Origin: a virus
Strand: one strand, 5' to 3'
Virus record (IMG/VR): IMGVR_UViG_3300029661_000108
DNA: 64,000 nucleotides
The notes under the pieces are model-generated. The model saw only the letters and a program-made list of their open reading frames with translations, searched no databases and had not been told where the DNA came from. The first letter of the stretch is position 1, and each line of letters begins with the position of its first letter. The position numbers and the translations under genes were made by a program. Positions 39,917 to 64,000 of this stretch are shown here, piece after piece.

Positions 39917-39920
39917 AAAT

Positions 39921-39995: not shown

Positions 39996-39996
39996 A

Positions 39997-41399: not shown

Positions 41400-43112
41400 T
41401 TATTCATCCCACCAGTTATAATTTTTAATGTCATCTTCAATCTGATGAGAGCTTGAGGATGATTGCTTTTTTATTTGCCTGATTGCTTCACTTTCTTGAA
41501 TTCCTGGTGAAAACCACGCTGGTTTATCTGAGTTGTTCTTTAAATCATTAAACAGAAATGTTAGAAAGCAGTTTATTTGATTATCTGGAGTCTTGAAAGA
41601 ATATCCAGAGGTTTTTATTCTATCAAGAATATTAAGCATAATTGAATCAAAGGACGCCTGATGAATAATAAGTTTTTCAAGATTCATTATTAACAAATCC
41701 CCTTCTATCATTTTCGCTTCTTTACTCATATAGAATTTCTTAAAGAGCTTCAGTTTATTGAAGCAGGCATTGAGAAAGTCTTTATCAGTGTTTTCTATAA
41801 AGATTGAATTATAAATAGAAGAATTGATTTCATTAATTAAATTAATTAATAAAGAATCGTTTTTATTATTTTCAGTATAAGTATTTAAAGTTTTATTAAT
41901 GTTGATATCTTTTTCGCTATTTTGTTTCTTTCTTTTTGAAGAAATTGTTTCTTTCATATCTGATGAAATGATGGCTCTTGATGGAGTCTTGATATCTGTC
42001 AAATTCTCTGAATTATGGCTCTTTTTAATTTCTTCTTCATCATTATAAGTCAAATTCACGGAATTGTGGCTCTCATCTAATATGTCATAATCATCAAATT
42101 GTGGCTCACTGAATTCTTTCATGTCTATATCTTCAAGGTATTGCTTTACAAATTGATATATTTTATCTGGGAAGTTTCTTGTTCCATTTTCCCATTTGGA
42201 ATATGTCTGTTTATAAAGGCTTAATGAATATTTTTTATTTATAGCCTCTACTATCTGTTTTTGGGTTAAGTTATGCTTTAAACGAAGCTGTTTAACATAT
42301 GTATAATTTCTTTTATTTTTATTGATAATTAAATCTTCTTTGAGTTGGTCCATGTGACTCTTTAGATATAGTTTTTTGTTTTTGCTGTCTAAGCTTTCAA
42401 ATTCTTCAACATTATCCTCAAAGTTGAAAAGTTTTAATAGATAGAAACGTGTATCCTGTGAAAATGCTCTATATTCAAATAATAAACCACAGGCTTTTAA
42501 AAGATATCTTCCTCTTTTTAATGCTGACTGTCCAAGCCCTAATTTCTTTTCCTGAGTTTCAAGAGATTCTTGGAAGTATATTCTTTCTTTGTCATCCACA
42601 AAATAATTCATTTGAGATAAACACATTGTATCAAAGTATATAGAATATTGAAGTTTTGTAGCTAGAGGTAGATTGTTATAGATATCATCAAATAATTCAT
42701 TTGGAAACCTAAAGAAATTGTAACTATCTAAATCTGTTTCATAATAAAACTCATCTGTTTCATCTTTTTTATTATAGTTATATAGATATATCTTATTATT
42801 TCCAACGCTTCGCTTATAGTTGATGAGTCCAACCCTCTTTAAATCTGCTCTTGCTCGGCAACATGTTGATTCACTAATTTTTAATTTATTCATTATATCA
42901 GAATCTGAGTAGATAATATAAGGACCACTGTTATCTTTATAAGTGGTAATGATATATCTGTTTAAATAGAGAGAATACATAAACTTTGCTGGAACAGAAA
43001 GTTTTTTGAATCTATTATCTGAAAATAAGACTTTTGGTATAGATAAGAAAGCATCTATTTTTGTTGTATCATTAATATTATAGTATTTAGATTCTTTATC
43101 CATAGAAAACAC
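41400..43112 (-). CDS. putative replication initiator / replisome-organiser-like protein with an embedded XRE HTH (570 aa)
   Basis: Central HTH NLTQKQIVEAINKKYSLSLYKQTYSKWENG; N- and C-terminal regions resemble phage/plasmid initiator (DnaD-like) architecture; lies near parAB. Confidence 0.45.
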   Translation of the reverse strand: MFSMDKESKYYNINDTTKIDAFLSIPKVLFSDNRFKKLSVPAKFMYSLYLNRYIITTYKDNSGPYIIYSDSDIMNKLKISESTCCRARADLKRVGLINYKRSVGNNKIYLYNYNKKDETDEFYYETDLDSYNFFRFPNELFDDIYNNLPLATKLQYSIYFDTMCLSQMNYFVDDKERIYFQESLETQEKKLGLGQSALKRGRYLLKACGLLFEYRAFSQDTRFYLLKLFNFEDNVEEFESLDSKNKKLYLKSHMDQLKEDLIINKNKRNYTYVKQLRLKHNLTQKQIVEAINKKYSLSLYKQTYSKWENGTRNFPDKIYQFVKQYLEDIDMKEFSEPQFDDYDILDESHNSVNLTYNDEEEIKKSHNSENLTDIKTPSRAIISSDMKETISSKRKKQNSEKDININKTLNTYTENNKNDSLLINLINEINSSIYNSIFIENTDKDFLNACFNKLKLFKKFYMSKEAKMIEGDLLIMNLEKLIIHQASFDSIMLNILDRIKTSGYSFKTPDNQINCFLTFLFNDLKNNSDKPAWFSPGIQESEAIRQIKKQSSSSSHQIEDDIKNYNWWDE

Positions 43113-50024: not shown

Positions 50025-50138
50025 GTTTATTTCCTCCTTATGTTTCGCATAGATTTACGTATATATTTTATCATAAATTTCATGAGTTGCGTTTTTCTGT
50101 TTGGATGTTATAAGTGTCAAAGGGGTTAGATAGCCCAC

Positions 50139-50876
50139 TTACCCTTTGTCATGAATTATCCAATGCATAATAGCTAATTCTTTTAGCACTTCCTTTCTGA
50201 CAACAATGTTAATTGGCTGCTCATATAATCCACATGATAAGACTGGATAGATATTCATTCGATTCCTATTTTTGACTAACTCTCCTTTTTCATTGAACCT
50301 TGCAGCACTTTTTTGGTGTATTTCATATGCTCTTATCTTATCAACAAGTACCTCTAAATCTCCTAAATGTCTTTCAATCTCTTTTTTAAGAGTTTCTTTA
50401 TTGATAAGCATTGCTTCTGTTTCAGCTACATTATCTTGTGTCATAAGAGCCTTACCTTGCCTGTAGGATGAAGCTCCAATAATCTCATGATAGACGATAA
50501 GATAGTATTCTGTTTCTACATCTGGGTTAATTAGCCAACCTTTTTGCGAAGTGTTTATATTTCCTGAAATTTCAAAGCAGAATGTTGGAAGCTGTGAAGC
50601 AATAGACTTTATATCTACTTTGATATCCTGACCATAAAGTTGAGCAATGACGTCAATTCCTCGTAGCTGTCTATCCCTGTCCTTCACAATTTCCTGAATA
50701 TTCATATCCTTGAATATATTCGTGTTTTGAAGATATTGGATAGAAGTTTCTTCAAATGCTTTATCCCCTACCCAGTTTGTTCTTTTATTTGATTGTGATG
50801 AATGGATAGACCGAGACGTCCTGTTTCCTAGATTTAGTTTGTATGCGTGGTTATTTTCTCTTTTATTAAAATCCAT
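50139..50876 (-). CDS. hypothetical protein, possibly a PD-(D/E)xK-like nuclease (245 aa)
   Basis: GIDVIAQLYGQDIKVDIK looks like a D...(D/E)xK core; speculative. Confidence 0.35.
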   Translation of the reverse strand: MDFNKRENNHAYKLNLGNRTSRSIHSSQSNKRTNWVGDKAFEETSIQYLQNTNIFKDMNIQEIVKDRDRQLRGIDVIAQLYGQDIKVDIKSIASQLPTFCFEISGNINTSQKGWLINPDVETEYYLIVYHEIIGASSYRQGKALMTQDNVAETEAMLINKETLKKEIERHLGDLEVLVDKIRAYEIHQKSAARFNEKGELVKNRNRMNIYPVLSCGLYEQPINIVVRKEVLKELAIMHWIIHDKG

Positions 50877-50897
50877 AAAGTTTCATTCCTCCTTCCT

Positions 50898-51563
50898 TTA
50901 TTTTTTATCAATATTTAAGATAGGCAAATCACCATTATAGTCTTTTTTTAGATGTTCAAAGATTTGATAAAGTGCTTCAACATCGTTAATAGCTCTATGT
51001 GCGACATATTCAATACCATATAATTTTCCTAAGTCAGACTGCTGATTTGATGCAACAAGTCCTTTTTCTTTTAGCTTCATGTTTATTGCCATCTTTAGTG
51101 TGTCTAGACTCCTTTCAAATGGAAAGTTAAGTTTGAATCTCTTTGTAGCTACTTTTAACATTCTGTTATCAAAACTATTAATATTTTGTCCAACTGCTAG
51201 ACTTGTTTCTTTGCTGTTGCACCATTCAACAAACTGTTTAACTACATCATATTCTGGTGGCTTATCACTTAACATCTTATTTGTAATACCAGTAATCTCA
51301 ACAATTCTTTGAGTGATAAAAATCCCTGGATTGCATAGTGCTGAAAATGAGTCAACAATAGTATTATCTTCAACATAAATAGCTCCAATTTCAATGATAT
51401 GGTCCTTATTAGTTAAACCTGTTGTCTCTAGGTCATACATGATATAATTACCAAGCGTTTTATCTGTGACTTGCTGATAGATGCAAATCGGAAATCGCAG
51501 GCATCTTAAATCATTTGATTCATCCAATAGGCAACCACATATTGGACACTTGTTCTGTTTCAT
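50898..51563 (-). CDS. DnaQ/epsilon-like 3'-5' exonuclease with an N-terminal zinc ribbon
   Basis: CPICG..C..C, then Exo I YDLETTG, Exo II NSFDNRML and Exo III HRAINDVEAL. Confidence 0.75.
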   Translation of the reverse strand: MKQNKCPICGCLLDESNDLRCLRFPICIYQQVTDKTLGNYIMYDLETTGLTNKDHIIEIGAIYVEDNTIVDSFSALCNPGIFITQRIVEITGITNKMLSDKPPEYDVVKQFVEWCNSKETSLAVGQNINSFDNRMLKVATKRFKLNFPFERSLDTLKMAINMKLKEKGLVASNQQSDLGKLYGIEYVAHRAINDVEALYQIFEHLKKDYNGDLPILNIDKK

Positions 51564-51815
51564 CTTTATCCTCCTTTAAATAATAAGATAATTGAAATTG
51601 TATAATAGACTGTTCTTTGATGTTCCTCCTCCTTGAATTGTTTAGACAGAGTCAATATGCTGACCTTGTCTTCAACAAAAAAAGATATACCTCTGCTGAG
51701 ATATACCTCTTCTTCGTTCTAATATACATTCATATTGTATCATATTTTTTAGCATTGAGTATTTATATTAATCATGAAATTATTGTTTTAAGAGAAGTGA
51801 CTCGTGAAATAAAAA

Positions 51816-51857
51816 GGGTTAGTTAACCCATTGTAAAGGTCAAGGGCTATTTAACCC
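51816..51857. repeat. left arm of an imperfect inverted repeat containing GGGTTAGTTAACCC and GGGCTATTTAACCC
   Basis: Its reverse complement matches 52576-52617 (23/23 identical, then similar). Confidence 0.6.
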
Positions 51858-51897
51858 TTTTTTATAAAAATGCTCTAATTAATTTGCAGGATTTTAT

Positions 51898-51950
51898 GTT
51901 GACTTTTAAAAGGGTTCTTCTTAAGTAAATATAACACTAACTTTATATTT
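51898..51950. repeat. left arm of a second inverted-repeat pair
   Basis: GTTGACTTTTAAAAGGGTTCTTCTTAAGTAAATATAACACTAACTTTATATTTA; its reverse complement recurs at 53708-53762. Confidence 0.55.
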
Positions 51951-52575
51951 ATAATTATTTTTAAGAGGATTTTGGTCGTTTATTTATGGTTTTTCTTATT
52001 TCTTATTCAGAATGCATTTTATTGGATATTTTTTCAGAAAAATGCATATTTTTTCAATTTTTTGAATTAGCATTATACTATCACTATTCAACCTTTGTTA
52101 AGTATAAAGCGAGGTGGGAGGGATTTATCAGGTATCTTGAAAAACTCTTTGGATATACTACCTCCTTAACATTCTTTAAAAACTCCTCCTATACCCCTTT
52201 TATTTCATTTGAGCTTATATGCTATAGCAAGTTTTTATATGATTGCTTATATAATCTCTAAATTTCAATTCTAAGAGACTTTTATGTGCTTGGTGGATAG
52301 TTGGAGGGTGTTTCCGAATAGGAGGCGGAGAGAGGGATTTAAGAGCGTTTTTATATGCTTATGCTTAAAAATATATAAATGTTGATAAAGTAATAATTGA
52401 GTAACATCTCTTAACATCCCTCAATCTCTTTTAAACTCCTTTTTTTAAATTATGTTGGACCGTGATTCGTTTCATCATCTATTGAGAATCACCTTATGAA
52501 AGGTAGCAGAAAAGCATGTAGAAAGAATTTTATATAGAGCAAGTTTTTATATTGGATATAAAAGGATTGTAGGGA

Positions 52576-52617
52576 GGGGTTAAATAGCCCTTGACCTTTG
52601 ATAAAGGTTAATTAGCC
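52576..52617. repeat. right arm of the inverted repeat
   Basis: GGGTTAAATAGCCCTTGACCTTT... is the reverse complement of the left arm. Confidence 0.6.
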
Positions 52618-53510
52618 TTTGTATATAAAAGAAATGACTGGCATAGGTGATAATCCTATTTACATTCCAGTAAAAATCTAATGACATAAAAAACAGCTAG
52701 ATATGGAAGGAGTTAAAGAGATTTTTGTCATGCAGATATGTGTTAGCATATAAAAGTTTCCTTTTATAATTCCTTCTATCCTCTTTTCAATTCTAAATTT
52801 TAATAGATACAAAGAATGGTAGGAGGTTTTAATGAGAGTCTGCCTGTTAAGGGGAGTAGTTGGGGTATAAAGAGAATTTTGAGAGTAGACTAAGCTTATC
52901 TAAAAAAGTATGACTTGAGTTTGAGTGGAATAAAAAAAAGACTCTCGAGAGAATCTTTACAAACACTTTCTAAGCTGTTCAGAGAGACTTCTAAGAATTT
53001 CCTGAGGGTATCTTACAAGCATGTTCAATGAGTCAGTATAGCAAAACTGTTTAGACTGAAATCTAAATATTATCCATGATAATCCTACTAAAAATATAAA
53101 TAGTATGAGCAGCACCAGAGAAAATGCCTGAGCATTCCATTGATGAGAAATGAGGATATAGAGGAGTGTTAGGAATGTTGAAAGAGCAATACTCATCAAA
53201 TAATAAGTTGAAGTTTTAAATCTTGTATAAATATCAATCTTTGTTTTCTTTCCAGTCCCTAATAAAAACTCTATACATTCCTGCTTGATAAGAATAGTTT
53301 CTCTTAAGTTAAATTTCATATATGACACCTCTTTTTTGTGAGTTACGAATAGCGAACATCTTTTATAGTTAGGATTATAACATAAATACTTTTGGAAATC
53401 AATAAATATATGTTGCATCAGGTAAAGTATTGCTTTAGCATAAAAACTAGGAATGTGGTTGAATCAGAAGCAAACAAAGTATTTTGGGTAAGTGAATGGA
53501 ATGGGTTTTT

Positions 53511-53590
53511 AAGAGAAAGGAAATGAATGTTGAGAGGAGGATAGGGGAGTAGGGAGAAGGGAGAGAGGTAGTAGGGGATAGAAAATGCGA
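53511..53590. repeat. polypurine (GA-rich) tract
   Basis: About 80 nt consisting almost entirely of G and A (GAGGAGGATAGGGGAGTAGGGAGAAGGGAGAGAGG...) in an otherwise AT-rich region. Confidence 0.6.
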
Positions 53591-53707
53591 AATCAATAAA
53601 ATCGCTTTAAAATCTTCAAAATTAAAAAATTCACCATAAAAAAGTATGATGAAATAAAAGTCCAAAAAAACGCTCAAAAACCTCTAGAAACTCCTTAAAA
53701 ATAGTGG

Positions 53708-53762
53708 CAAATATAAAGTTAGTGTTATATTTGCTTAAGAAGAACTCCTTTAAAAGTCAAAC
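53708..53762. repeat. right arm of the second inverted-repeat pair
   Basis: CAAATATAAAGTTAGTGTTATATTTGCTTAAGAAGAACTCCTTTAAAAGTCAAACC. Confidence 0.55.
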
Positions 53763-53835
53763 CTTATTGACTCTCAATATATAATTCTCTAAAGATATTA
53801 AAAAAATCTAAAAACTTAAAGAATTATGCTTATGT

Positions 53836-53849
53836 GGGCTAACTAACCC
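53836..53849. promoter_or_regulatory. GGGCTAACTAACCC motif copy upstream of parA
   Basis: Matches the 14-bp family also seen at 51816, 51844, 52576 and 55967. Confidence 0.4.
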
Positions 53850-53962
53850 ATGAAAATAATTTCTATTGCGGAAAAAGTCAATTCAAGTTATAATTGACTT
53901 TGATTAGAGTATCTTGGATATAAAAATTTTATTAAAAAGCAAGGAATTCAATTGAGAAGGGA

Positions 53963-54916
53963 ATGGTAGCAATGGGCAAAAACACAAAAGTAATTACACT
54001 CTATAATCAAAAAGGAGGCGTTGGTAAAACAACAACAACAATTAATCTCGCTCAAGTTCTAGGGAGTACCTTTAATAAAAAAGTATTAATTATTGATAAT
54101 GATGCTCAAAACTCTCTTAGCTTTCTGGCAAATATACAAATAAGAAATAATGGAGCTGTAGAAGATGAAGATGGATTAAAGACATTAGGGTGGCTGGAAC
54201 AGATGTTTCAGTTATACGGAGATGTTCCAACAGTTCGAGATATTCAGGAAACAATTATAACTCCAACATATCAAAAATCGGAGAGAATTGAAGGAACCAT
54301 TGAGTGGGATATAGTCGAGAAAAAATTTGCGTTCGATATGATTCCTGGAACTGGAAAAGACTTATCTTTGGCTGAATTGATTTTTATCACGCCCAACGAT
54401 GAACCTTTTATTCTTAAGCCAGAAAATAGAAAATTGGCGCCATATGTCTTGAAAGTTATCATTGAGCAAATAAAGAAATACTTTGATTATGATTATATCT
54501 TAATTGACTGTCCTCCATCACTAGGTATCTTAAGTATGGGAGCTCTAGTTGCATCAGATTATTTAATTATACCAACAACAAGTGATATGCTTTCAACGAT
54601 AGGGATTCAAACAATTATAGACAATCTTAAGGAATTACACTTATATGTACCAGACTTTAATATATTAGGGGTTTTGTTTAATTGCTATTCAGATACAAAA
54701 TATGATAATGAGTTGATAGAAGATGTAAGAAATTTTGGAGACTCTCAAGGAATATCTGTATTTGAAGTGAAAATTCCTAAGAAAAATCAAATGAGAATGG
54801 TAAGTTCTGAAGAGATTATAGCAGTTCTCAAAAACGAGAAGGCTTTTAAGAGTTATACTGAGTCAATTATTGACCTTGCTCAAGAAATTATAAAGAAAAG
54901 TGAAGGGGGAGAATAG
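53963..54916 (+). CDS. parA: ParA-family partition ATPase
   Basis: Deviant Walker [15 protein letters not shown]. Confidence 0.85.
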
Positions 54917-54918
54917 TT

Positions 54919-55947
54919 ATGCCACCAAAAAAGAAATCGATGAGTGATACGGGAACACATAAGGCTTCTTCATCAAGTCTGTTCTCAGCTCTTGGAGATG
55001 GAATAGATGTTACTGGTTTTGACCCAGATTCAAAAACAGTGAGTGAAACATCCAGATTTAGAACCGAATATCTAGAACTATCAAAAATTATAGACAATAA
55101 AAGTAACAATTTTAGAGCCTTGGATACATTCTATTTGGAATTGTCAATTGCAAAGGTAGGGCAACTTCAACCAATTATTCTAGTTCCAGAAGTTGTAGAA
55201 GGAAAATCAACTGGGCTCTATGAAATAAAAGTGGGGTCTCGACGTTTTGCTGCATTAAATAGGCTACTAGAAAAAGCTTTTAAAAAGAGTAATCAAAAGG
55301 ACATTGAAAAGTACTCAAAAGCTTTTGCAATTATTCTGCCTTATGGTGCTACTCAAGATGAAATTGAAACAATTTATCGAGAAACGAATACTACAGCCAG
55401 ACCATTAACTGTAGAAGAAGTTTTCGCCCATTTTGATGGTATCTTTAAAATAAGTGACACAGGTGAATTTGTTCATATTCCAAAAGGTGTCAACAAGTAT
55501 GAATATGTATCCAAAGAGTTTAAGAGGATGGGATTTGATTTTTCGGCAACAAAAGTCAAAGAGTACTTAACAATTTATAGTGCATCTGATAAAAGAGTTA
55601 CAGACTGGTTTGAAGATAAGCTTTTAACACGTCAGCAGGCTGTAGAAGTGTCAAGAATGCCTTCGGCTATGCAAATATCTGTAATGGATAAGTTTGAGCA
55701 GATGACAACTAAGGAAATAAGTGATTATATTAAGACTTACATGCTGGAAAAGAAAACAGAGAAGCTTACAAAGAAAATGAGAGGAATCGATGCAATTAGC
55801 TTTGTAATAAAGAGCAATAAAAATCTGAAACATATTGCAGTAATGGAAAATATCAGATTTCAATCAGAAGATGAGAAACTTAGTTTCTTAAGTCAGATAC
55901 AGGAGCTTCAGGACCATTTGAATAAAATTGAAAAGTTATTAAAATAA
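54919..55947 (+). CDS. parB: ParB-like partition protein
   Basis: Immediately downstream of parA; ParB-box-like YEIKVGSRRFAALNRL (cf. GERRxRA). Confidence 0.65.
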   Translation: MPPKKKSMSDTGTHKASSSSLFSALGDGIDVTGFDPDSKTVSETSRFRTEYLELSKIIDNKSNNFRALDTFYLELSIAKVGQLQPIILVPEVVEGKSTGLYEIKVGSRRFAALNRLLEKAFKKSNQKDIEKYSKAFAIILPYGATQDEIETIYRETNTTARPLTVEEVFAHFDGIFKISDTGEFVHIPKGVNKYEYVSKEFKRMGFDFSATKVKEYLTIYSASDKRVTDWFEDKLLTRQQAVEVSRMPSAMQISVMDKFEQMTTKEISDYIKTYMLEKKTEKLTKKMRGIDAISFVIKSNKNLKHIAVMENIRFQSEDEKLSFLSQIQELQDHLNKIEKLLK

Positions 55948-55966
55948 TAAATGAGCATTATAAAAA

Positions 55967-55980
55967 GGGCTAATTAACCC
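55967..55980. promoter_or_regulatory. GGGCTAATTAACCC motif copy downstream of parB
   Basis: Flanked by A and T runs; it could also form a terminator-like hairpin. Confidence 0.4.
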
Positions 55981-56119
55981 TTTTTATTTTTTGTCCTATT
56001 GTAACAATAGGACAACACATATCTGTAGATATGTGATACAATATATATGTAAATTTAAACGAGGCATCAGGACTATATTTTCATAATATAGTCTTTTTTG
56101 TGCTCAAAAGGAGGAAATT

Positions 56120-56777
56120 TATGAGTTTAAAAAGTAGATTGAAAGAAAATCAAACAGAAGGAGATGTAAAAGAAGATGTTAAGAAATCTTTGAGTGAGGA
56201 AGAAACAGAAAAAATGAGCGATACATATGAAACACCAGAACGAATTGCGTTCAGCAAAGGAGAAAAAGATTACCCAAAAAAAATAGACAAAGTTTATGCT
56301 CAAATGAAAACAGGAGATGTTTTTTTAGAAGTTCTTGAAGATGGTTTTAATCTAACTAATGAAGATAAGGGATATAACACAAAAATTCATATCAATTTCT
56401 CTCAGCTGGATAAAAGTATGAAACAAAAAGCATTTAAAAGTCATTATCTTGACTTAACTAATTTTCTATATTTAAGAAACATTTTTCTCTCAGGCAAATA
56501 TTCCGTATTAGAAGAATTGGAAAGAGCGACGTTAAATGCTACAAAAAAATATTGTGAAAGTATTTTTTCTGAGTATAAACAGCCTGATAAAAGTATTTCA
56601 AATACTTTTTATGTAACTCCAGGAATGAAACAAGGCAATTGGATGATTGGCATTGTAGAAGTGAATTCAAAGACTAAGGAAAACCAAAGAATTCAGGTGC
56701 CAGTTACAACTGCCCGATTGATTGCCATGCTTGAGCTTATTTATTTAGCTTACCAGAGACATCTTTTTAGAAACTAA
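56120..56777 (+). CDS. hypothetical protein (about 219 aa)
   Basis: SD AAAGGAGGAAATTT then ATG at 56120, inside the longer ORF-track frame that begins at 56100. Confidence 0.4.
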
Positions 56778-56805
56778 TATTTCAATTGAACAGGAGGAGC
56801 TTTAA

Positions 56806-59109
56806 ATGGACTTAAGATTAAAGGATAGATACAAGCAAAGGCTGGCGAAGAATTCTATGCCAGCTTCTTCTCATAAAAAGGAAAATGAACTGGAAACAAT
56901 TAGAGGTGCTGTTCAATATCGAATTGTACCTAGAGGATTTTTAGAATCAGATAAGTTAATCTGGGTAGTCATGGATATTAAGGATGTTGCCACAAAAGAG
57001 CATATCAAAGTTGTTGGAGAAACCAATCACTACAATGTTGGAGACTATTTGGAATTTTATGGAACATGGGTAGAAAGAAATGGAAAAAAAGAATTTCATT
57101 TTAAATATGCATTAAGAGTAGATGATGATTATGTTGGTGCAACAGCTATGCTAGCTTTTCTATTTGGAGCAAAGACAGCAAAAAGAATTATTGAGCATTA
57201 TGATAACAAACCTCAAGAACCTATGAATATTTTTAAAAACAATGAAGAGAGATTTAGAGAAGATATGAAGTCAGTTAAGGGAATAGGTGATAAAAAAATT
57301 CAAAAGGCCTATGAGAAACATAAAAAATATATTGCAGTTGATGCTCTTTATTTTAAATTTGCAAGATTCAATCTTTCATTGTCAAAGGCTCTTAAACTTA
57401 TTAAAAAGTGGGGAAGTGCAGCAGCCGATATTATTGATGAGAATGTTTATCAGTTAATTCATATTGATGGTTTCTCATTTGAAACAATTGATAGAATTGG
57501 ATTAGGATATTATAAGTTTGATAAAAAGGATGGAAGGAGAATAGAAGCATATCTTATTCAAATTCTAAAAAATGCTGCATCAGGAAAAGGAGACTGTTTT
57601 TTGCCATTAGAAGGACAGGAAGGTCTTATTGCTCAGGCACAATTAGGCTTAAATATATCAGATAATCTTATTAGAGAAAAAGTCATTGACCTTATCTATA
57701 AACAAAAGTTGTACAAAAGATTATATGAAGGCAATATAGTTATATATCTTCCTCATATTTATAAAGCTGAAAAAACTGTTGTGCAAATAGTTTCATCTGC
57801 AATACATAAGAATAAAGTTATCAAAGAAGATAAAGTTGATATGATAATTGCTGATTATGAAAAGAGAAAAGGCTTTACTCTTGCAAACAAACAGAAGGAA
57901 AGTATTAAAACCTCATGTATTAATCAGTTTAGCATTATATCAGGTCCGCCTGGTTCTGGCAAAACAACAATTGTTGATGTTATATGTGAAGTTTTTAGAA
58001 GGCATAAAAAAACATGTAATATCAAATTGGCTGCCTTGGCTGGGAAAGCAGCAACACGAATGGCTGAAACAACAGGGATAGAAGCCAGTACAATTCATAG
58101 ATTGCTAGGATATAATCCAGACACTGGATGGACATATAATGAAAAAAATCAGTTGCCAAATGTTGACTTGCTAATTATTGATGAGTTTTCTATGGTTGAC
58201 ATTCTTCTGTTTGAGAAATTGATGAAAGCTGTCTCAAGAGATACCGTTGTGATTTGTGTAGGAGATAAAGACCAGTTACCATCAGTGGATTGTGGACAGG
58301 TTTTAGAAGACTTAATTGATGTTCCTTATATTCCTAAGACCATTCTGGAAGAAATCTATAGACAAAAAAAGGATAGCACCATTTTAAAAAGAGCTCTTGC
58401 ATTTAATAAAGAACAAATTCCCTCTTTAACTGAAGCGAAGGATTTTAAATTTATTTCCTGTGAGGTAAATGATATTAAAAAGACTTCAGAGACTGTCTTG
58501 GATTTATATGTAAATAAAATTAAGCAATGGGGAATAAAGAACGTCTGTCTCATGGTTCCACAAAATGTCAAAGAACTAGGAGGAGATATAATGAATCTTC
58601 AACTTCAAGGAATTATTAATCCGCCTGATAAAAGCAAAACTGAAATCAGTAGTGGGCATAAAAGAGTTTTTAGAGAGGGTGATAGAGTTATCCAGTTGAA
58701 GAATATTGAGAATGGGATTTCAAATGGAATGGTTGGAACTGTTATTGAATGTTTTCCTACGGATAGACATATAGCATCAGAAGATAAGTTTACAGTATTA
58801 TTTGATAATGGAAATGAAAAGACATATGCCAGAGAAGATTTTGATATGTTAAAGCTTGCATATGCATTAACTATTCACAAAAGCCAAGGTTCAGAATATA
58901 AATGCATCATTATGCTGATGGATGAGCATCAGAGATTTATGATAAGAAAGAAATTAGTCTATACAGGAATGACTCGATGTAAAGATGAACTTTTTATCGT
59001 TGGACAGGAAAAGATGTTTGAGCATGCCTTGAAAAATAAAGATAAGCGAAGAAATACTATGTTAACTCACTTATTTATGGAATATAAAGAAGGAGCCACA
59101 ATTTCGTGA
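56806..59109 (+). CDS. RecD-like SF1 DNA helicase
   Basis: HhH KSVKGIGDKKIQ, Walker A GPPGSGKTT, DEFSMV (Walker B), and a C-terminal SH3-like region typical of RecD2. Confidence 0.8.
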   Translation: MDLRLKDRYKQRLAKNSMPASSHKKENELETIRGAVQYRIVPRGFLESDKLIWVVMDIKDVATKEHIKVVGETNHYNVGDYLEFYGTWVERNGKKEFHFKYALRVDDDYVGATAMLAFLFGAKTAKRIIEHYDNKPQEPMNIFKNNEERFREDMKSVKGIGDKKIQKAYEKHKKYIAVDALYFKFARFNLSLSKALKLIKKWGSAAADIIDENVYQLIHIDGFSFETIDRIGLGYYKFDKKDGRRIEAYLIQILKNAASGKGDCFLPLEGQEGLIAQAQLGLNISDNLIREKVIDLIYKQKLYKRLYEGNIVIYLPHIYKAEKTVVQIVSSAIHKNKVIKEDKVDMIIADYEKRKGFTLANKQKESIKTSCINQFSIISGPPGSGKTTIVDVICEVFRRHKKTCNIKLAALAGKAATRMAETTGIEASTIHRLLGYNPDTGWTYNEKNQLPNVDLLIIDEFSMVDILLFEKLMKAVSRDTVVICVGDKDQLPSVDCGQVLEDLIDVPYIPKTILEEIYRQKKDSTILKRALAFNKEQIPSLTEAKDFKFISCEVNDIKKTSETVLDLYVNKIKQWGIKNVCLMVPQNVKELGGDIMNLQLQGIINPPDKSKTEISSGHKRVFREGDRVIQLKNIENGISNGMVGTVIECFPTDRHIASEDKFTVLFDNGNEKTYAREDFDMLKLAYALTIHKSQGSEYKCIIMLMDEHQRFMIRKKLVYTGMTRCKDELFIVGQEKMFEHALKNKDKRRNTMLTHLFMEYKEGATIS

Positions 59110-59184
59110 TTATGACAGATACAAAGTTTCTAATAACGAGGAGGAGCCATAAATTCATGAATTTGACATGTTGGAGGAATAAAA

Positions 59185-59712
59185 ATGAAAAAAAGACTTA
59201 TTTTGGATTTTGATGGAACTCTGGTTGAATTTAAACCAGTTGAGAGATTAGATGAACTATTGACTCCTGGATATTTTTCAAAACTATTTGTTTTTGAGAA
59301 TGTTGTTTTAGCTATTCAGGAATTATACAAAAGGCATCCAGAAATAGATATACTCATAGGAAGTAAAGTGCTAGATGCACCACATATTCCAAAAGACAAA
59401 GATGTAATTATAGATAAGCACTTGCCATTTATAAATAGAGAAAATAGAATCTATATCCCTTATGATGCTAAAAAAACCGATTATATACAAATTACGTCTT
59501 GTGATTATGTTTTGGATGATTTAACAACAAACCTTGTAGAGGTTGAAGAGAGTGGGGGACATGGTATCAAACTCTTGAATGGAATAAACGCTAATAAAAG
59601 AACATGGAAAGGACCAGCTGTACATAAGGATTATCCTTATACGCTTATTGTTGAGCAGCTAGAAATTTATATGAATTTGAAGGAGAAAGAAAATGAAATG
59701 GAAAAAGTATAA
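59185..59712 (+). CDS. HAD-superfamily hydrolase, 5'(3')-deoxyribonucleotidase-like (175 aa)
   Basis: N-terminal DFDGTL HAD motif I; size typical of the NT5C family. Confidence 0.5.
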   Translation: MKKRLILDFDGTLVEFKPVERLDELLTPGYFSKLFVFENVVLAIQELYKRHPEIDILIGSKVLDAPHIPKDKDVIIDKHLPFINRENRIYIPYDAKKTDYIQITSCDYVLDDLTTNLVEVEESGGHGIKLLNGINANKRTWKGPAVHKDYPYTLIVEQLEIYMNLKEKENEMEKV

Positions 59713-61531
59713 TAAGACAAGTGGATTGCATGTATGTCCTCAAATGGATATGTATCTTACATCTTGTGGATTTACCAAGGCATCCGCCTACTACTTAACT
59801 CACCCTTGTGAGATGCATGATAAATATCTTCTACACGATTTAAGAGAAGTTGTTCATGCTATTGGGGAGTTTATAAAAAACAATAAAAAGATAGTTATTA
59901 TAGGAGATTATGATGCAGATGGAGTGACATCAACAAGCTGCTTATATTTAACTCTAGATTATTGTGGGGCTTGTGTGGAGTATCTCATTCCACATAGAGT
60001 CAAGAATGGATATGGATTAAGTCATGCTTTGGTGGATGATGCTATTGCAATTAATGCTGATGTTATCTTAACATGTGATAATGGCATTTCCGCCTTAGAA
60101 GCAATCCGATATGCTAAAAGCAAAGGAATTACTGTTATTGTGACAGACCACCATACACCAGGAGAAACTTTGCCAATTGCAGATTATATTGTTCATCCTG
60201 CTTTAGGAGACTATCCATTTTCTAATATAAGTGGATGTCAGACAGCATATAAACTATGCTTAGGTATCATTGAAGAGTGCTCCCCATTAAAGGATAAGAA
60301 ATTAATAAAAAAAGCAATGAGGAGAAAGGAATTCCAATTGAAGGACTATCTGTTTCAGTTGTCAGCAATTTCTATTGTAACTGATGTTATGCCACTTGCT
60401 TCCATTGATGAAGATACAGCAAAAGTCAATGAAAATAGAAAATGGTTAATGGATGGAATTGAAATGATTAAAAAGAATCCAGATTGGAGAATTCAAATGA
60501 TGTTAAAAGAACTTGGGGTCAATCAAAAAACATTTGAAGAAACATCAATTGGGTTTTATGTTGGACCGTGTTTAAATGCAGTTGGAAGGTTAACTGATGC
60601 AGGTAAAGCAGTTCAATTTTTAACAGCACAAACTAAAGAGGAAGCAAAAAAAAGATTTTCATTTATGTACTATATCAATGAAGAGAGAAAAAAGGTAAAG
60701 TTGGAGTGCCTAGAAAAAATTCATATGAGTGATAAACATAAGATTAATTTAATTGTCCAAAAGGAACTGCATGAAGGGGTACTTGGGATTTTGGCATCTC
60801 ATTATACAAATCAGAATGGATATCCAACTTTTGTATTGACTGACTGCACAATCGAAAGTGGTCAAAAAGCTTGGAAAGGTTCAGGAAGAGGAGTAGAAGA
60901 ACTAAATTTGTATGATATTCTTTCTCAGGTTCAAGATGAAACAGGGACACTCTATACCTTTGGTGGACATGCGGGGGCAGTAGGGGTTACTGTTCTGGAT
61001 GAAAATATTGAACAATTTAAAAGTAGAATTACTGAAATTGTAGAGGACAGACTTGCTCATTCCTCATATGCAAAGAATTATATTCAGTTAACGACAATTG
61101 AACAAAGAAAGGAAATTGCTGAAGCGGTTAAAGAATTAAAGCCTTTTGGAAATGGACTTCGTTTGCCAATCGTGGAATTAAGCTATAATGTTAAGGAAAT
61201 TAATCTGTATTATAAGTCTAAACACGCTAAATTTCTTCATAAGGAACCTGATAAATCAGGAACAAAGACTATTTGGAATAATTTTGAATTATGGAACTAT
61301 GGAGGATTAGAAGAAGCTAAAATACTATGTAATAGAGATTTTGTTTTATCTTTTGACAATGTTCAAAAACTTATAGATAATGGAAAAACAGAATCTGAAG
61401 CTCAACAGCAAAAATATGAAAAATATATACGAAAAACGAAGGAATCAAGGGTGACATATAAAGTTGAAGTTGGTTATAGTGACTTTTGTGGAATGGGGCC
61501 AAGATTTAATGTTTTAGAGGTTACTTTTTAG
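59693..61531 (+). CDS. RecJ-like DHH-family single-strand exonuclease
   Basis: GDYDADGVTS (DHH motif I/II) and VTDHHTP (DHH motif III). Confidence 0.7.
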   Translation: MKWKKYNKTSGLHVCPQMDMYLTSCGFTKASAYYLTHPCEMHDKYLLHDLREVVHAIGEFIKNNKKIVIIGDYDADGVTSTSCLYLTLDYCGACVEYLIPHRVKNGYGLSHALVDDAIAINADVILTCDNGISALEAIRYAKSKGITVIVTDHHTPGETLPIADYIVHPALGDYPFSNISGCQTAYKLCLGIIEECSPLKDKKLIKKAMRRKEFQLKDYLFQLSAISIVTDVMPLASIDEDTAKVNENRKWLMDGIEMIKKNPDWRIQMMLKELGVNQKTFEETSIGFYVGPCLNAVGRLTDAGKAVQFLTAQTKEEAKKRFSFMYYINEERKKVKLECLEKIHMSDKHKINLIVQKELHEGVLGILASHYTNQNGYPTFVLTDCTIESGQKAWKGSGRGVEELNLYDILSQVQDETGTLYTFGGHAGAVGVTVLDENIEQFKSRITEIVEDRLAHSSYAKNYIQLTTIEQRKEIAEAVKELKPFGNGLRLPIVELSYNVKEINLYYKSKHAKFLHKEPDKSGTKTIWNNFELWNYGGLEEAKILCNRDFVLSFDNVQKLIDNGKTESEAQQQKYEKYIRKTKESRVTYKVEVGYSDFCGMGPRFNVLEVTF

Positions 61532-61716
61532 TAGCCTTTTTTATATATTAGTAAGGTAATGTACAACTGAGTAGCATCTGTTTAATAATATATATAGGTT
61601 ATATATTACACTTCTTAAGATATGTGATACAATAATAATGAAATATATAACGAGCAGAGGATATGTCATGAAGGCGTATCCTCTTTTGGTTAATAAACAA
61701 AAAAGGAGGAAATTTT

Positions 61717-62964
61717 ATGTTAACAGCGTTTGATGAGAAAGCGCAAAAAGCAATTGTCATTGCAGAGAGTATTGCTTTTGATTTAGGACATAGTAGTGTA
61801 GGAAGTGAACATCTTCTCTTATCTCTTTTGAAGATAAAAGATTGTCCTTTTTCTAAGATATTAAAGACGTATCATGTTGATGATGAAATGATATATGAGG
61901 ATGTTGTAAGGTTGTTTGGTGAAAAAGATATTCAACCTTTTTATATGGAGTACAGTGAAGTCGTAAAGAAGATTTTAGAAGATGCTATGAGTATGAGTGA
62001 AGCGAAAAAAGAAAGTAAAGTTTCTTTGAATACTTTATCAATTGCTATGTTACTACAAAAAGAAAGTGTAGCTGTGGTATTACTCAACAATTATCATGTC
62101 CCCTTTGATGAAATTAAAAAGGAACTAGAGGAAAAAGAAAACATGGACGATATTAAACTTGGTCCTTGTGAATCCTTTGCAACGATTCTTCAGCCATCTC
62201 GCAAAAAACTTATACTTGAAAGAAATCAAGAGGTTAAGGATATTATAATTAGTCTTAGCTGCAAAGAAAAAAGTAATGTTGCTTTAATAGGTAAAGCAGG
62301 TGTTGGAAAAAGTGCAGTTGTAGAGGAGTTGGCGAGAATTTTGAAGTATTATCCACCAAAAAATCTTGATGGATACCAAATTGTTTCTTTTAACTTAACT
62401 GCTGCAATGTCTGGAACTAGGTACAGAGGAGAATTGGAAGAAAAAATAAATAAACTGCTTAATATAACAAGAGATAAAAAGGCCATTATCTTTATCGATG
62501 AAGGGCATGATATTTTAAAAAGTGGAGCTACTGAAAGTCTATCCGTCTCTGATATGATTAAACCTGTTATGGCAAGGTCAGATTATAAGTTTATCGTAGC
62601 AACAACAGAAGCTGAGTATAATCAGTTTATTCAAAACGATGCAGCACTCAATAGACGTTTTAGACAGGTGACTATAAGAGAACCTGAAATAAATAAAGTG
62701 AAGAGGATGATAACTAAAAAAGTTGAGGATTATTCTAAATATCATCACGTATCTATAAAGGATTTAGACATTGATAATATTATTGATTTGTGTATAGATA
62801 TTCCAGATAGATACTTTCCAGACAAAGCCTTGGATGTTATAGATTATGTCATGGCTTATTGCAAATTTGAGAATAAAACCGGATTTGATATTCAAGTTGC
62901 TAAAAGATATATAAATTCTCTTAAGGGGTATCCTTCTGTAGAGAGTGAAGTGTTACTAGCATAA
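61717..62964 (+). CDS. Clp-type AAA+ ATPase fragment (Clp N-domain repeats plus one AAA module, 415 aa)
   Basis: Clp_N-like repeats (GHSSVGSEHLLLSLL), Walker A GKAGVGKSAVVEELA, Walker B IIFIDEGH; stops after the first nucleotide-binding domain. Confidence 0.6.
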   Translation: MLTAFDEKAQKAIVIAESIAFDLGHSSVGSEHLLLSLLKIKDCPFSKILKTYHVDDEMIYEDVVRLFGEKDIQPFYMEYSEVVKKILEDAMSMSEAKKESKVSLNTLSIAMLLQKESVAVVLLNNYHVPFDEIKKELEEKENMDDIKLGPCESFATILQPSRKKLILERNQEVKDIIISLSCKEKSNVALIGKAGVGKSAVVEELARILKYYPPKNLDGYQIVSFNLTAAMSGTRYRGELEEKINKLLNITRDKKAIIFIDEGHDILKSGATESLSVSDMIKPVMARSDYKFIVATTEAEYNQFIQNDAALNRRFRQVTIREPEINKVKRMITKKVEDYSKYHHVSIKDLDIDNIIDLCIDIPDRYFPDKALDVIDYVMAYCKFENKTGFDIQVAKRYINSLKGYPSVESEVLLA

Positions 62965-62993
62965 ATAAAAGTGAAGCGTGAGGAGGATAGAAT

Positions 62994-63185
62994 ATGAAGT
63001 ATGTATATTTGGAAGTCTCAAGCAAAAATGTGAAGTCTAAAGTTCATCTCACATTTAAAAATATTATTGAAATGATTACTTTTCTTAATGAACCCAAAAA
63101 CAATCTTGAGTTGGTCAAAGAAATAGTAGATAGCTGTGGAAACCTTAGAGGATTTTTAACAAAGGAGATAGTGACAAAAGATTGA
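62994..63185 (+). CDS. hypothetical small protein (63 aa)
   Basis: ORF with SD GAGGAGG upstream. Confidence 0.3.
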   Translation: MKYVYLEVSSKNVKSKVHLTFKNIIEMITFLNEPKNNLELVKEIVDSCGNLRGFLTKEIVTKD

Positions 63186-63227
63186 TTTTGAAATAAATTT
63201 AAGAAAACATGAAAAGGAGGAAAGATA

Positions 63228-63665: not shown

Positions 63666-63714
63666 ATGAAGAATAATCAATACAGTCAGATTAAAGAAGA
63701 GCGAGGTATAAAAT

Positions 63715-63915: not shown

Positions 63916-64000
63916 AAACTTTGTTTTCAAATATATGATAAAATATAAGAGTAATATAAACGAAGTAGGACTATTTCCATGAGGAAGTAGTCTTTTTTTA

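Follow-up and report, generated by a model that had tools for sequence, protein, structure and literature searches.

Chromosomal ParABS systems pair Spo0J/ParB with 16-bp palindromic parS sites clustered near the origin, while in parS of P1 the ParB boxes are arranged around an IHF-induced bend. In the RepA_N plasmids of Firmicutes, such as pAD1 and pSK41, the origin lies inside the rep gene and the adjacent partition genes are flanked by repeats. KorB of RK2, a ParB-family CTP clamp, combines partition with the silencing of distant promoters from palindromic operators, OB (PMC11790492), and the centromere of the prophage-plasmid N15 consists of four separate inverted-repeat sites bound by SopB (PMC7205306; Ravin & Lane 1999 cited there).

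The window, i.e. the 64-kb stretch of DNA analysed here, derives from an extrachromosomal element of ~195-206 kb and 31% GC that is frequent in human-gut metagenomes and that, because a RepA_N initiator is present, is most likely a megaplasmid. Judged from sequence, the region at 50.1-56.0 kb is likely to be a partition locus, in which a 14-bp palindrome would be the putative parS-type site of ParB and the gap upstream of parA would not be a vegetative origin (Table 1). Comparisons were made with the syntenic relatives L009, L010, L050, L051 and L052 and with the smaller plasmids L007, L011, L013, L014, L015 and L016.

Table 1. Features of the putative partition locus and the RepA_N gene (positions in the window)
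Feature	Position	Strand	Basis or context
RepA_N-family initiator gene	41400..43112	-	PF06970 1.2e-15; internal tandem repeats
parS-like palindrome GGGTTAGATAGCCC	50123..50136	.	between 245-aa gene and SpoVG-like gene; exact pattern match
Degenerate copy GGGTTAATTAGCCA, 12-bp core intact	50524..50537	.	within 245-aa gene
Putative parS doublet GGGTTAGTTAACCC + GGGCTATTTAACCC, 28 bp apart	51816..51857	.	left arm, 44-nt inverted repeat
Large inverted repeat, left arm	51899..52082	+	box, AT-rich dyad, phased T-tracts
Alternating G-rich/C-free and C-rich/G-free blocks, 30-70 nt	52094..52880	.	composition
G-rich blocks	52094-52125, 52274-52345, 52554-52580, 52814-52880
C-rich blocks	52150-52210, 52404-52445, 52760-52795
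Mid-gap putative parS doublet GGGTTAAATAGCCC + GGTTAATTAGCC, inverted orientation	52577..52618	.	right arm, 44-nt inverted repeat
Small gene, 120 aa, two predicted TM helices	52957..53319	-	ORF, ribosome-binding site, promoter-like site
G-rich C-free tract, 112 nt, 41% G	53476..53587	+	base composition, G4 search
Large inverted repeat, right arm	53577..53760	-	box 53737-53760 (-), then dyad, phased T-tracts
Putative parS/operator GGGCTAACTAACCC	53836..53849	.	17 bp upstream of parA -35 hexamer
Putative parA promoter	53866..53901	+	TTGCGG 53866-53871, 17-nt spacer, TATAAT 53889-53894; read from sequence
parA, Walker-type ParA/MinD-family ATPase, 317 aa	53963..54916	+	PF13614 1.3e-35; phrog_164 1e-41
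parB, divergent ParB/Srx-fold protein, 342 aa	54919..55947	+	weak ParB_N match; phrog_4715; AF2/Foldseek
Putative parS GGGCTAATTAACCC	55967..55980	.	20 bp past parB stop codon

The palindrome and its predicted partner

The five motif copies listed in an earlier note on this DNA were all recovered by exact pattern search (51816, 51844, 52577 rather than the 52576 given there, 53836 and 55967), and a sixth exact copy, absent from that list, was found at 50123. The motif GGGYTANNTARCCC thereby occurs six times in the 64 kb against 0.00 expected from 100 shuffles, and its 12-bp core GGYTANNTARCC eight times, a relaxed search adding 50525 and 52606. All eight core copies fall within 50.1-56.0 kb and none in the remaining 58 kb of the window, so that within the scanned 64 kb of the ~200-kb element the motif clusters at the par region rather than recurring at uniform density. 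The imperfect 42-bp inverted repeat of the earlier note is real but spans 44 nt (51814-51857 / 52577-52620, 82% complementary), each arm consisting of two motif copies 28 bp apart. The left doublet is located 42 bp outside box L and precedes the putative exonuclease-operon promoter by ~80-125 bp.

Each of the five syntenic relatives and six smaller plasmids, whose ParB proteins belong to the same small clade, carries its own 12-16-bp palindrome: GGCTATTTAACC in L009 (few good copies), GGTTATCTAACC and GGTAACGTTACC in L010, TAGACAACGTTGTCTA in L050 (seven copies), TGGTCACTAGTGACCA in L051 (eight copies) and AGGTCACCAGTGACCT in L052 (three to four copies). Among the window and its five syntenic relatives, all six elements have both a palindrome 87-270 bp upstream of parA and a mid-gap site (exact, or with no more mismatches than allowed). 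Five have a palindrome 5-75 bp after parB (the window and four of the relatives, as do L007 and L011; outside the window mostly without a T-run), and four have one immediately outside box L. The correspondence extends to a doublet of L050's own palindrome, also at 28-bp spacing, at the place of the window's 51816 doublet, and to a palindrome of L051 at the place equivalent to the 50123 copy. The smaller RepA_N or Rep_3 plasmids (L007, L011, L013-L016) have parAB alone in common with the window, and in these 14-16-bp palindromes flank parAB.

The ParB helix motif K-[DE]-Y-[LI]-[ST]-I-Y accompanies GGYTA half-sites in seven of seven elements, and other palindromes are found in four elements with G, Q or K at that helix position and in L015 (RDYWSIY). 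Co-variation of the palindrome with the predicted ParB recognition helix is thus supported by comparison, as a correlation across ~12 elements. ParB diverges faster than its neighbours, the L050 protein being 43% identical as against 74% for the exonuclease. More than one palindrome type is present in each of L010 and L016, and a strict picture of one ParB and one site is therefore too simple. Clustering at parAB, conserved placement and a change of sequence together with ParB support the proposal of the earlier note that the region is a centromere/operator with putative ParB sites, and the repeated palindrome most likely provides candidate docking sites, i.e. a putative centromere, for the neighbouring ParB.

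The ParA protein lacks an N-terminal HTH, its P-loop beginning near residue 13. In ParB, a GSRRF box (cf. GERRxR), an HTH and a C-terminal coiled coil are present, with the recognition helix predicted at ~residues 207-220. The ParB_N sequence match is weak (Pfam E 0.008, under the gathering score) and relatives are rare (22 clusters at E<=1e-30 among 1.84 billion representatives), while the AF2 model (pLDDT 75) matches Noc/ParB/KorB clamps in Foldseek at E 1e-7 to 1e-4 over ~230-245 aligned columns. As modelled, ParB is a member of a small divergent clade of the ParB/Noc/KorB CTP-clamp fold, for which CTP binding is predicted from the fold and one motif.

The structured gap and the probable position of the origin

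The gap of ~2.4 kb, previously described as non-coding, contains a small gene with a ribosome-binding site and a sigma-A-like promoter (TTGATT-17-TATAAT with TG, at 53402-53374). A small two-TM gene occupies the same place in all five syntenic relatives, its architecture conserved and its sequence not.

The second inverted-repeat pair of the earlier note is also real and longer than was claimed (136 nt ungapped at 74%, or 188 nt gapped at 72%), and the two pairs are interleaved (A B A' B') rather than nested. In the left arm, the 24-nt box TTGACTTTTAAAAGGGTTCTTCTT at 51899-51922 is accompanied by an AT-rich dyad (~51926-51950) and T-tracts phased at 10 bp; the right arm is oriented inward, facing the G-rich tract and the small gene. 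An inverted pair of such modules, of 185-340 nt each with arms 1.5-2.3 kb apart, is found in six of six related elements, and ~100 bp of T-tracts phased at 10.0 bp suggests intrinsic curvature. The modules mostly lie 40-80 bp from a putative parS, which mostly flanks the outer side, and the first ~50 nt of the two arms are closer to each other within an element than to their orthologues. Modules are confined to the large elements that encode replisome genes; the small plasmids with a ParB of this clade lack them.

What had been taken for an 80-nt GA-only tract (53511-53590) is 86% purine, with 33 A, 36 G, 10 T and 1 C. No C-free run in the window exceeds the one of 112 nt (the second longest has 62 nt, and shuffles reach at most 89), and the G4-type motif of four G-runs, GGGGAGTAGGGAGAAGGGAGAGAGGTAGTAGGGG at 53544-53577, is the only one in 64 kb. 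L009, L010 and L050 have a G-rich tract at the corresponding place and on the same strand, as do L051 and L052 by G4Hunter or as a G-free run. The gaps of L009 and L010 also share the alternating G/C block pattern, for which RNA-fold z-scores in the window are unremarkable. The polypurine tract and inverted repeats are indeed unusual, as had been remarked, the inverted pair recurring in 6/6 elements and the G-rich tract in most, and the modules, tract and alternating blocks are accounted for by none of the explanations tested.

It is unlikely that the gap (51.6-53.9 kb) is a vegetative or second origin, for instance for the element's replisome genes (PolIII alpha, exonuclease, RecD2, RecJ), in which the modules would bind an initiator or aid unwinding and the G-rich tract would form an R-loop or hold a primer site. 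In favour of an origin, the flanking genes point away from the gap, where the raw cumulative GC skew also reaches its minimum; the modules combine features common in origins (conserved box, dyad, phased T-tracts, AT-rich DNA), the first 50 nt of their arms resemble each other within an element as iterons do, and the restriction to elements with replisome genes would also fit. However, the raw skew flips at the gap because the coding strand switches there, and coding-strand GC3 skew is best fitted by a switch at 41-42 kb (residual SS 61.5, against 126.7 for 52.5 kb and a total of 131.5). Genes on the - strand have a skew of +0.27 left of 41 kb versus -0.03 at 41.4-51.6 kb (Mann-Whitney p=4e-5), where they look head-on, and + strand genes +0.37 right of 45 kb versus +0.09 left of 36 kb (p=0.002), those at 45.3-46.8 kb looking co-directional; GC3 skew is lower on the exonuclease side than on the par side in all five relatives. 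If skew is taken to record the direction of replication and not the history of the genes, the predicted switch in replication direction seems to lie at the RepA_N gene, ~10 kb from the palindrome region; a second, rarely used origin would be compatible with this pattern. DnaA boxes are neither clustered nor enriched in the gap, and no initiator gene lies in or beside it, whereas the RepA_N gene, 8.5 kb to its left, bears tandem repeats of its own (51 nt x1.9 at 41998-42094 and 33 nt x2 at 41803-41868). With the initiator gene elsewhere, the GC3 switch displaced and DnaA boxes not enriched, the earlier suggestion of an oriV, alone or with a centromere, is unsupported; replication forks would instead start at or beside the RepA_N gene (40.9-42.1 kb), crossing the gap rightward.

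Regulation and the remaining readings

Four sites lie ~60-125 bp upstream of putative promoters, namely those of parA, the exonuclease operon, the gene after parB and probably the SpoVG-like gene, and from this placement ParB may additionally regulate the operons next to its sites in a KorB-like manner. The putative parA promoter, which a simple promoter scan did not list, is overlapped by a 10-bp inverted repeat, AAAGTCAATT/AATTGACTTT (53874-53883, 53892-53901); L009 and L010 conserve its -10 context CAAGTTATAAT, and L050 and L051 have a similar one. The parA -10 is also overlapped by a second conserved half-site, AAAGTCA/TGACTTT, which recurs in the boxes and implies that other binders exist. 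This half-site and the four promoter-proximal sites could be taken to mean that the palindromes are operators only, serving a non-ParB regulator (a host factor, or the protein encoded by the conserved gene that follows parB), and that the true centromere lies at another place. Such an arrangement is quite unlikely, given that palindromes flank parAB even in small plasmids sharing nothing else with the window, that they co-vary with the ParB HTH helix, and that the 225-aa protein encoded downstream of parB has no DNA-binding domain match.

The inverted arms, 1.5-2.3 kb apart and homogenised over their proximal 50 nt, would also suit an invertible segment or convergent homologous ncRNA genes including the C-rich tract, and the - strand fold of 53480-53765 has z = -4.1. 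Both are very unlikely: a single orientation is seen in the window, six near-identical contigs from different samples and five relatives, and none of the adjacent genes scanned was recognised as a recombinase gene; the 'spacer' is conserved but the candidate -10 hexamers are not, the 10-bp T-tract phasing is a property of DNA rather than RNA, there is no Rfam match and the remaining fold z-scores are weak. That the motif copies are mere hairpins or intrinsic terminators, recurring by composition or duplication and bound by no sequence-specific protein, is barely credible, since although those at 55967 and 51844 (+ strand) and 51816 (- strand) fit a simple terminator pattern with A/T-run flanks, and the first, with its A5/T5 flanks, also resembles a weak bidirectional terminator, the stem has just 5-6 bp and is interrupted at its centre by a mismatch or wobble, a T-run is missing from three of six copies, chance predicts zero copies, the copies conserve sequence and not structure alone, and the relatives' palindromes at the same places differ in sequence, mostly without a T-run.

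In the partition locus favoured here, the palindromes (core GGYTA-NN-TARCC) would be recognised by ParB dimers via the HTH, and ParB would probably load as CTP-dependent clamps, spreading across the 6-kb region with its eight sites, after which the ParA ATPase would move the ParB-DNA complex. Recognition by the HTH, clamp loading, spreading and ParA-driven movement are the mechanism established for the ParB family, from which they are carried over to this element. The box/dyad/curved-DNA modules and the G-rich tract are conserved at the DNA level and may, as a best guess, shape or delimit the partition or regulatory complex.

Comparison with known systems

The locus resembles chromosomal ParABS in its Walker ParA without an N-terminal HTH, in a ParB that combines a ParB/Srx N-domain with an HTH and, as a model, can be superposed on Noc/ParB clamps, and in several scattered palindromes that lie a few kb or less from parAB and ~8-14 kb from the predicted origin. 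It differs in that ParB is a very distant relative by sequence (Pfam ParB_N E 0.008), the 14-bp site is built of GGYTA half-sites and varies between close relatives, the replicon is RepA_N plasmid-like rather than a chromosome and the CTPase activity of ParB is putative. The four promoter-proximal sites recall KorB-OB, and KorB chains are among the structural matches of the ParB model; unlike KorB-OB, a KorA-like partner was not identified for the window, the host is Gram-positive-like and AT-rich, and regulation by ParB is suggested by site positions. As in N15, the putative centromere consists of several single palindromes scattered over the replicon with no tandem array, and in both cases ParB specificity varies among related systems. 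However, the SopB of N15 and F is of type Ia, with a partner SopA that has an N-terminal HTH where the window's ParA has none, and the window's sites are confined to 6 kb at parAB within the 64 kb scanned.

As in the RepA_N plasmids, the initiator carries internal repeats, and L007, L011 and L015 have parAB and RepA_N in divergent orientation, the sites lying on either side of parAB. In contrast to those plasmids, the predicted centromere-binding protein has a ParB/Srx-HTH fold and the predicted sites are palindromes rather than short direct iterons, and in the large elements ~8 kb of genes and a structured gap of 2.4-3.5 kb separate RepA_N from parAB. As in P1 parS, the putative centromere sites would adjoin strongly bent DNA, as suggested by the T-tracts phased at 10.0 bp, although here the curvature would be intrinsic to the sequence and the modules, for which a role in partition is hypothetical, are two inverted copies of 185-340 nt lying 1.5-2.3 kb apart.

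Palindromic sites around parAB and their proposed relation to ParB

A scan of the whole window with the pattern GGGYTANNTARCCC returned six exact matches against 0.00 expected, and the eight matches to its 12-bp core, GGYTANNTARCC, were all confined to the surroundings of parAB (see table), bearing out the repeated 14-bp motif that the earlier note had reported there. The first of the two inverted repeats described with it is also present, and consists simply of two motif doublets, each with 28-bp spacing; the two repeat pairs, said to be nested, are in fact interleaved. The half-sites of a window copy are usually one GGGTTA and one GGGCTA, and never GGGCTA twice. At the site following parB, L001, a contig 98.7% identical to the window, carries GGGTTAATTAGCCC in place of the window's GGGCTAATTAACCC, its exact reverse complement, through a coupled pair of substitutions, as though the palindrome were turned round. 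A full-text literature search on the palindromes was without result.

Relatives were found by exact-protein look-ups of ParB homologues and exonuclease homologues, giving two sets. The syntenic set (n=5; L009, L010, L050, L051 and L052) shares the order RepA_N, exonuclease, gap, parA parB, RecD2 and RecJ, with a gap of 2.4-3.5 kb that holds one small gene encoding two transmembrane (TM) segments, the L009 and L010 contigs stopping short of any RepA_N gene. Identity to the window was 35-46% for ParB across these five elements and 55-74% for the exonuclease in L050-L052. ParB has diverged faster than the products of neighbouring genes, as would be expected if diversifying pressure acts on partition specificity. 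The second set comprises smaller plasmids with a ParB of the same clade, of which L007, L011 and L015 have a RepA_N gene divergent from parAB and L014 a Rep_3 gene, together with L013 and L016.

Placement was compared in coordinates relative to the parA start across the six large elements, i.e. the window and the five syntenic relatives. A palindrome was found upstream of the parA promoter, at -87 to -270, and in the middle of the gap in all six, 5-75 bp past the parB stop in five, immediately outside the left box (the 24-nt element of the modules described below) in four, and beyond the exonuclease gene in three. The palindrome sequence itself differs between elements, and a position that is kept while the sequence changes is what would be expected where a protein-recognition site co-evolves with its binder. 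ParB is the only DNA-binding protein encoded beside the sites in all these elements, and in its predicted second HTH helix the pattern K-[DE]-Y-[LI]-[ST]-I-Y accompanies GGYTA half-sites in seven of seven elements, the helices KGYLVIY, KQYYKIY, KKYSAIW, KQYLSIY and RDYWSIY going with other palindromes. The D/E position of the pattern, E in KEYLTIY, is at about residue 213. Given sites that are clustered, kept in position and co-varying with the ParB helix over about 12 elements, the motif is best read as the putative parS of this ParB, and the centromere/operator suggested earlier is well supported comparatively. Different palindromes at equal positions, with one helix position tracking the half-site, provide a compact natural series on the diversification of ParB-parS specificity.

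The sequence signal of ParB is weak (PF02195 at E 0.008, below cutoff; TIGR00180 at 5.8e-4; PDB profile match to Noc at 6e-4). A Foldseek search with its AF2 model (pLDDT 75) matched the CTP-clamp N-domain and DNA-binding domain of Noc, ParB and KorB (E 1e-7 to 1e-4, probability 1.00), the predicted fold resembling CTP-bound ParB structures, and the protein is predicted to combine an N-terminal ParB/Srx domain with a C-terminally adjoining HTH domain for DNA binding. The alignment contains an invariant GSRRF box (compare GERRxR) and an invariant E155/N157/R161 stretch. The clade is small: an exhaustive profile search of 1.84 billion representatives recovered only 22 clusters at E<=1e-30.

An alternative role for the palindromes would be as transcript hairpins or terminators; three of the six motif copies have T-runs and passed a simple intrinsic-terminator scan. 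Only the copy at 55967 lies on the correct strand 3' of a gene, the stems have just three G-C pairs and a central mismatch, and the relatives' palindromes mostly lack T-runs; conserved placement with changing sequence does not look like the pattern of a hairpin or terminator. The low RNA-fold z of the motif doublet (-3.5/-5.0) simply reflects its palindromes. In L016, 16-bp palindromes of three kinds, alike in design, lie 3' of parB, along with a four-copy CGATTCACTAAATCG repeat, and this variety may represent several specificities on one replicon.

Features of the partition locus and its surroundings, with the palindromes of the relatives
Element	Feature	Position	Strand	Details
Window	tRNA genes	35955-40073	-	23 genes
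Window	RepA_N-family initiator	41400-43112	-	570 aa; PF06970, 1.2e-15; internal tandem repeats of 33 nt (41803-41868) and 51 nt (41998-42094)
Window	Palindrome GGGYTANNTARCCC	50123, 51816, 51844, 52577, 53836, 55967		6-8 copies
Window	12-bp core	50124-55968		8 copies
Window	Candidate ParB site			GGGCTAACTAACCC
Window	Direct repeat, 5' leader of exonuclease operon	51684-51711		GATATACCTCT x2, then T7 on the - strand
Window	32-nt inverted repeat (I3)	51714-51745 / 56031-56062	- / +	81%; promoter/leader-like, extended -10 TGATACAAT
Window	First inverted repeat	51814-51857 / 52577-52620		44 nt, 82%
Window	Module arms, left / right	51899-52082 / 53577-53760	+ / -	
Window	Mini-ORF	52836-52874		12 codons; RBS and ATG TAGGAGGTTTTAATG
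Window	Small gene	52957-53319	-	120 aa, two TM segments
Window	C-free run	53476-53587		112 nt, 41% G
Window	G4-type motif	53544-53577		loops 4, 4, 12
Window	parA promoter-like site	53866-53894		TTGCGG-17-TATAAT; motif end 17 bp upstream of -35
Window	Inverted repeat at parA -10	53874-53901		perfect 10 bp, AAAGTCAATT ... AATTGACTTT, brackets -10
Window	parA	53963-54916	+	
Window	parB	54919-55947	+	
Window	Phased A-tracts in parB	55170-55370		statistic 3.26
Window	Post-parB site	55967-55980		GGGCTAATTAACCC
Window, L001	Conserved block 3' of parAB	56100-64000; L001 11222-20487		225-aa protein without assigned function, RecD2, NT5C-like nucleotidase, RecJ, ClpB-like AAA protein, RadC, PolIII alpha (PHP)
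L001	Post-parB site	11047-11060		GGGTTAATTAGCCC
L006	Variant ClpB-like region	16819-21029		
L009	Palindrome			GGCTATTTAACC, few copies
L010	Palindromes			GGTTATCTAACC, 4 copies; GGTAACGTTACC, 3 copies
L050	Palindrome			TAGACAACGTTGTCTA, 7 copies
L051	Palindrome			TGGTCACTAGTGACCA, 8 copies
L052	Palindrome			AGGTCACCAGTGACCT, 3-4 copies
L007, L011, L013, L016	Palindrome			GGYTAYCGRTARCC, 2-5 copies each
L014	Palindrome			TGGGCACTCGTGCCCA, 3 copies
L015	Palindrome			GTCAATCGATTGAC, 5 copies
L016	Palindromes 3' of parB	5337-6384		TGGTCATCGATGACCA x2, TGGGCGTCGACGCCCA, TGGCTATCGATAGCCA x2

Replication origin and nature of the element

An oriV had also been proposed for the gap between the exonuclease gene and parA, with GC skew and DnaA boxes as checks. 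The raw GC skew does flip sign at the gap; the coding strand switches there too, and third-codon (GC3) skew on the coding strand was therefore used to part the two effects. Among minus-strand genes, mean GC3 skew was +0.27 left of 41 kb and -0.03 at 41.4-51.6 kb (Mann-Whitney, p=4e-5), and among plus-strand genes it was +0.37 right of 45 kb and +0.09 left of 36 kb (p=0.002). A two-parameter fit to 60 genes was best with the switch placed at 41-42 kb, which left a residual SS of 61.5 out of 131.5, a switch at 52.5 kb being nearly useless (SS 126.7 of 131.5). The tRNA array, carried here on a plasmid-like element, points leftward, as does replication there according to GC3 skew, and this co-orientation, together with leading-like genes at 40.3-40.9 kb, narrows the switch to approximately 40.9-42.1 kb, corresponding to the 3' half of the RepA_N gene with its tandem repeats or the spacer immediately downstream. 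In all five relatives, GC3 skew was lower for genes on the exonuclease side (-0.08 to +0.12) than on the par side (+0.05 to +0.32).

The gap contains neither the initiator gene nor the strand-bias switch of a RepA_N-type oriV, nor does it contain the DnaA-box cluster beside an AT-rich unwinding element of an oriC-type origin; with at most one mismatch to TTATCCACA, 32 DnaA boxes were found in the window against 24 expected, only one of them in the gap. The origin is probably not in the gap, and the RepA_N gene region, to which the GC3-skew switch maps, is the candidate oriV of the element. The candidate centromere and predicted origin offer handles for vector building, element tracking and incompatibility tests.

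The window is AT-rich (approximately 31% GC) and carries genes for a topoisomerase, FtsH, a Y-family polymerase, the DnaQ-like exonuclease, RecD2 and RecJ, with a ClpB-like protein, RadC and PolIII alpha just beyond. Much of the machinery for its replication and repair thus seems to be supplied by the element itself. In L006, a JGI contig, a full-length ClpB-like gene (667 aa) precedes genes for an HTH regulator and an ABC transporter in place of RadC and PolIII alpha, reflecting either structural variation or a chimeric assembly. Identity as a phage was dropped, as no structural or packaging proteins were found among 30 ORFs searched against Pfam, 20 of these also against PHROGs. ParB with exactly this sequence occurs in 1448 indexed assembly blocks. 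The longest of the contigs, of 195,445 bp (ERZ28563579 scaffold_54), 195,605 bp and 206,066 bp (ERZ28637989 scaffold_39), come from human-gut studies, and six such contigs match the window at 98.6-98.9% identity over the gap. Locus searches by ParB in viral, genome and metagenome contigs returned no relatives, and in BLAST against phage and plasmid collections the region matched only trivially, at the parA P-loop. As there was no similar element in phage, plasmid, viral-contig or species-representative genome collections, the element is treated as uncultured and RepA_N megaplasmid-like, one of a widespread family of such gut elements carrying the module architecture described below.

Inward-facing modules and the G-rich tract

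The gap had been called non-coding, which does not hold for the small gene, a reading frame with a ribosome-binding site and a promoter-like site. No homology was detectable among the small two-TM proteins of the window and its relatives, and six-frame ORFs of the gap match between relatives only at the DNA level, in the module arms. At gathering thresholds Rfam identified nothing but the tRNA array in the window, with no credible match in the gap at E<=5. RNA-fold z for the G/C blocks and arms was mostly +0.7 to -3 on both strands, with one stronger value on the minus strand of 53480-53765 (z -4.1). The mini-ORF begins with a perfect RBS and ATG inside a G-rich block, and AGGAGG-like strings occur in several G blocks. 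TGACTTTT was dropped as a general enriched motif, its 15 copies being scattered across the window.

The second inverted repeat of the earlier note is real and larger than reported (188 nt, 72%), and an inverted module pair of this kind is present in all six large elements, with arms of 185-340 nt at 63-72% identity to each other, 1.5-2.3 kb apart. Reading inward, each arm comprises a 24-nt box, TTGACTTNNNNNNRRGKTCTTCTT, which the window contains exactly twice; an AT-rich dyad, the arms matching better within an element than between orthologues; and three or four TTTTT-N-RGG units that run on as 10.0-bp-phased T-tracts for approximately 100 bp. Most arms also contain a C-rich, G-free tract, and in most large elements a parS-like copy lies 40-80 bp outside the boxes. 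Mean spectral power of the T-tract phasing was 2.42 against a background of 0.12, with 11 of 12 arms above the background 99th percentile, and the arms rank among the top phased windows in the loci of each of the five relatives. Such 10-bp phasing points to a role at the DNA level, through curvature, and not at the RNA level. Separately, the strongest 10-bp-phased A-tract signal of the window lies within the parB coding sequence.

Of the 80 nt in the supposed GA-only tract, 10 are T and 1 is C. The C-free run is the longest in the window, exceeding all 200 shuffles. It includes a G4-type motif, by a criterion of four runs of at least three G with short loops between them, that is unique in the 64 kb and has the second-highest G4Hunter score in the window (1.68). 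Positioned between the small gene and the right arm, the G-rich tract belongs to the parA-sense strand. The L009, L010 and L050 loci have no other G4-type motif, and the top G4Hunter 25-nt window in L009, L010, L050 and L051 falls in this tract.

The best guess is that the modules organise or delimit a partition or regulatory complex, the main alternative role being that of a conditional second origin. It is tentatively proposed, with a rather low probability, that the inward-facing modules (each mostly parS-flanked), the G4-type tract with its fixed strand and the gene for the small membrane protein would together form an undescribed cis-acting architecture, either a structured 'centromere core' organising or confining ParB clamps or a second, conditional origin for the element's own replisome. 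As small plasmids with a ParB of this clade lack the modules, such a ParB does not generally require them; curved DNA was dropped as a common centromere feature of the clade, being absent beside parS in those plasmids. In the box, TTGACT is fixed and would suit a sigma-A promoter, a reading dropped since the hexamer 17 nt downstream varies at key positions and the spacer GGNTTCTTC is conserved. A terminus or fork trap was likewise dropped, because plus-strand genes right of the gap have leading-strand-like GC3 skew, indicating that forks pass through. An inverton was dropped given a single orientation in seven near-identical contigs and five relatives; the adjacent genes that were scanned contained no recombinase domain. 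Matches to a box pattern in viral contigs were single and scattered, consistent with chance. The conserved curved modules and G-rich tract constitute a concrete, testable puzzle of moderate interest.

Possible regulatory sites and comparison with known partition systems

The 32-nt promoter/leader-like repeat lies ahead of the exonuclease operon and also of the 225-aa gene that follows parB, with a motif copy approximately 80-125 bp upstream of each, and is kept upstream of the L050 exonuclease gene. The direct repeat in the exonuclease leader looks like a terminator or attenuator, and L050 has a clean hairpin and T7 at the equivalent place. The inverted repeat at the parA -10 has the half-site AAGTCA/TGACTT, which recurs in short palindromes next to the boxes of L009, L050 and L052 and, in L051, upstream of parA; this suggests a second conserved DNA-binding factor.

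ParA (317 aa), whose gene stops 2 nt before the parB start, is a deviant Walker-A ATPase of the ParA/MinD family (PF13614, 1.3e-35; PF01656, 1.5e-17; phrog_164, 1e-41). Its P-loop is at the start of the protein, without an N-terminal HTH, which places the system closer to chromosomal-type or KorB-type ParABS than to classical type Ia. Otherwise the partition system is of an ordinary and well-understood kind, to which it adds a new, divergent member. KorB operators act at a distance (PMC11790492), and the motif copies upstream of promoter-like sites in the window recall this distant-operator layout, a likeness drawn from their position.
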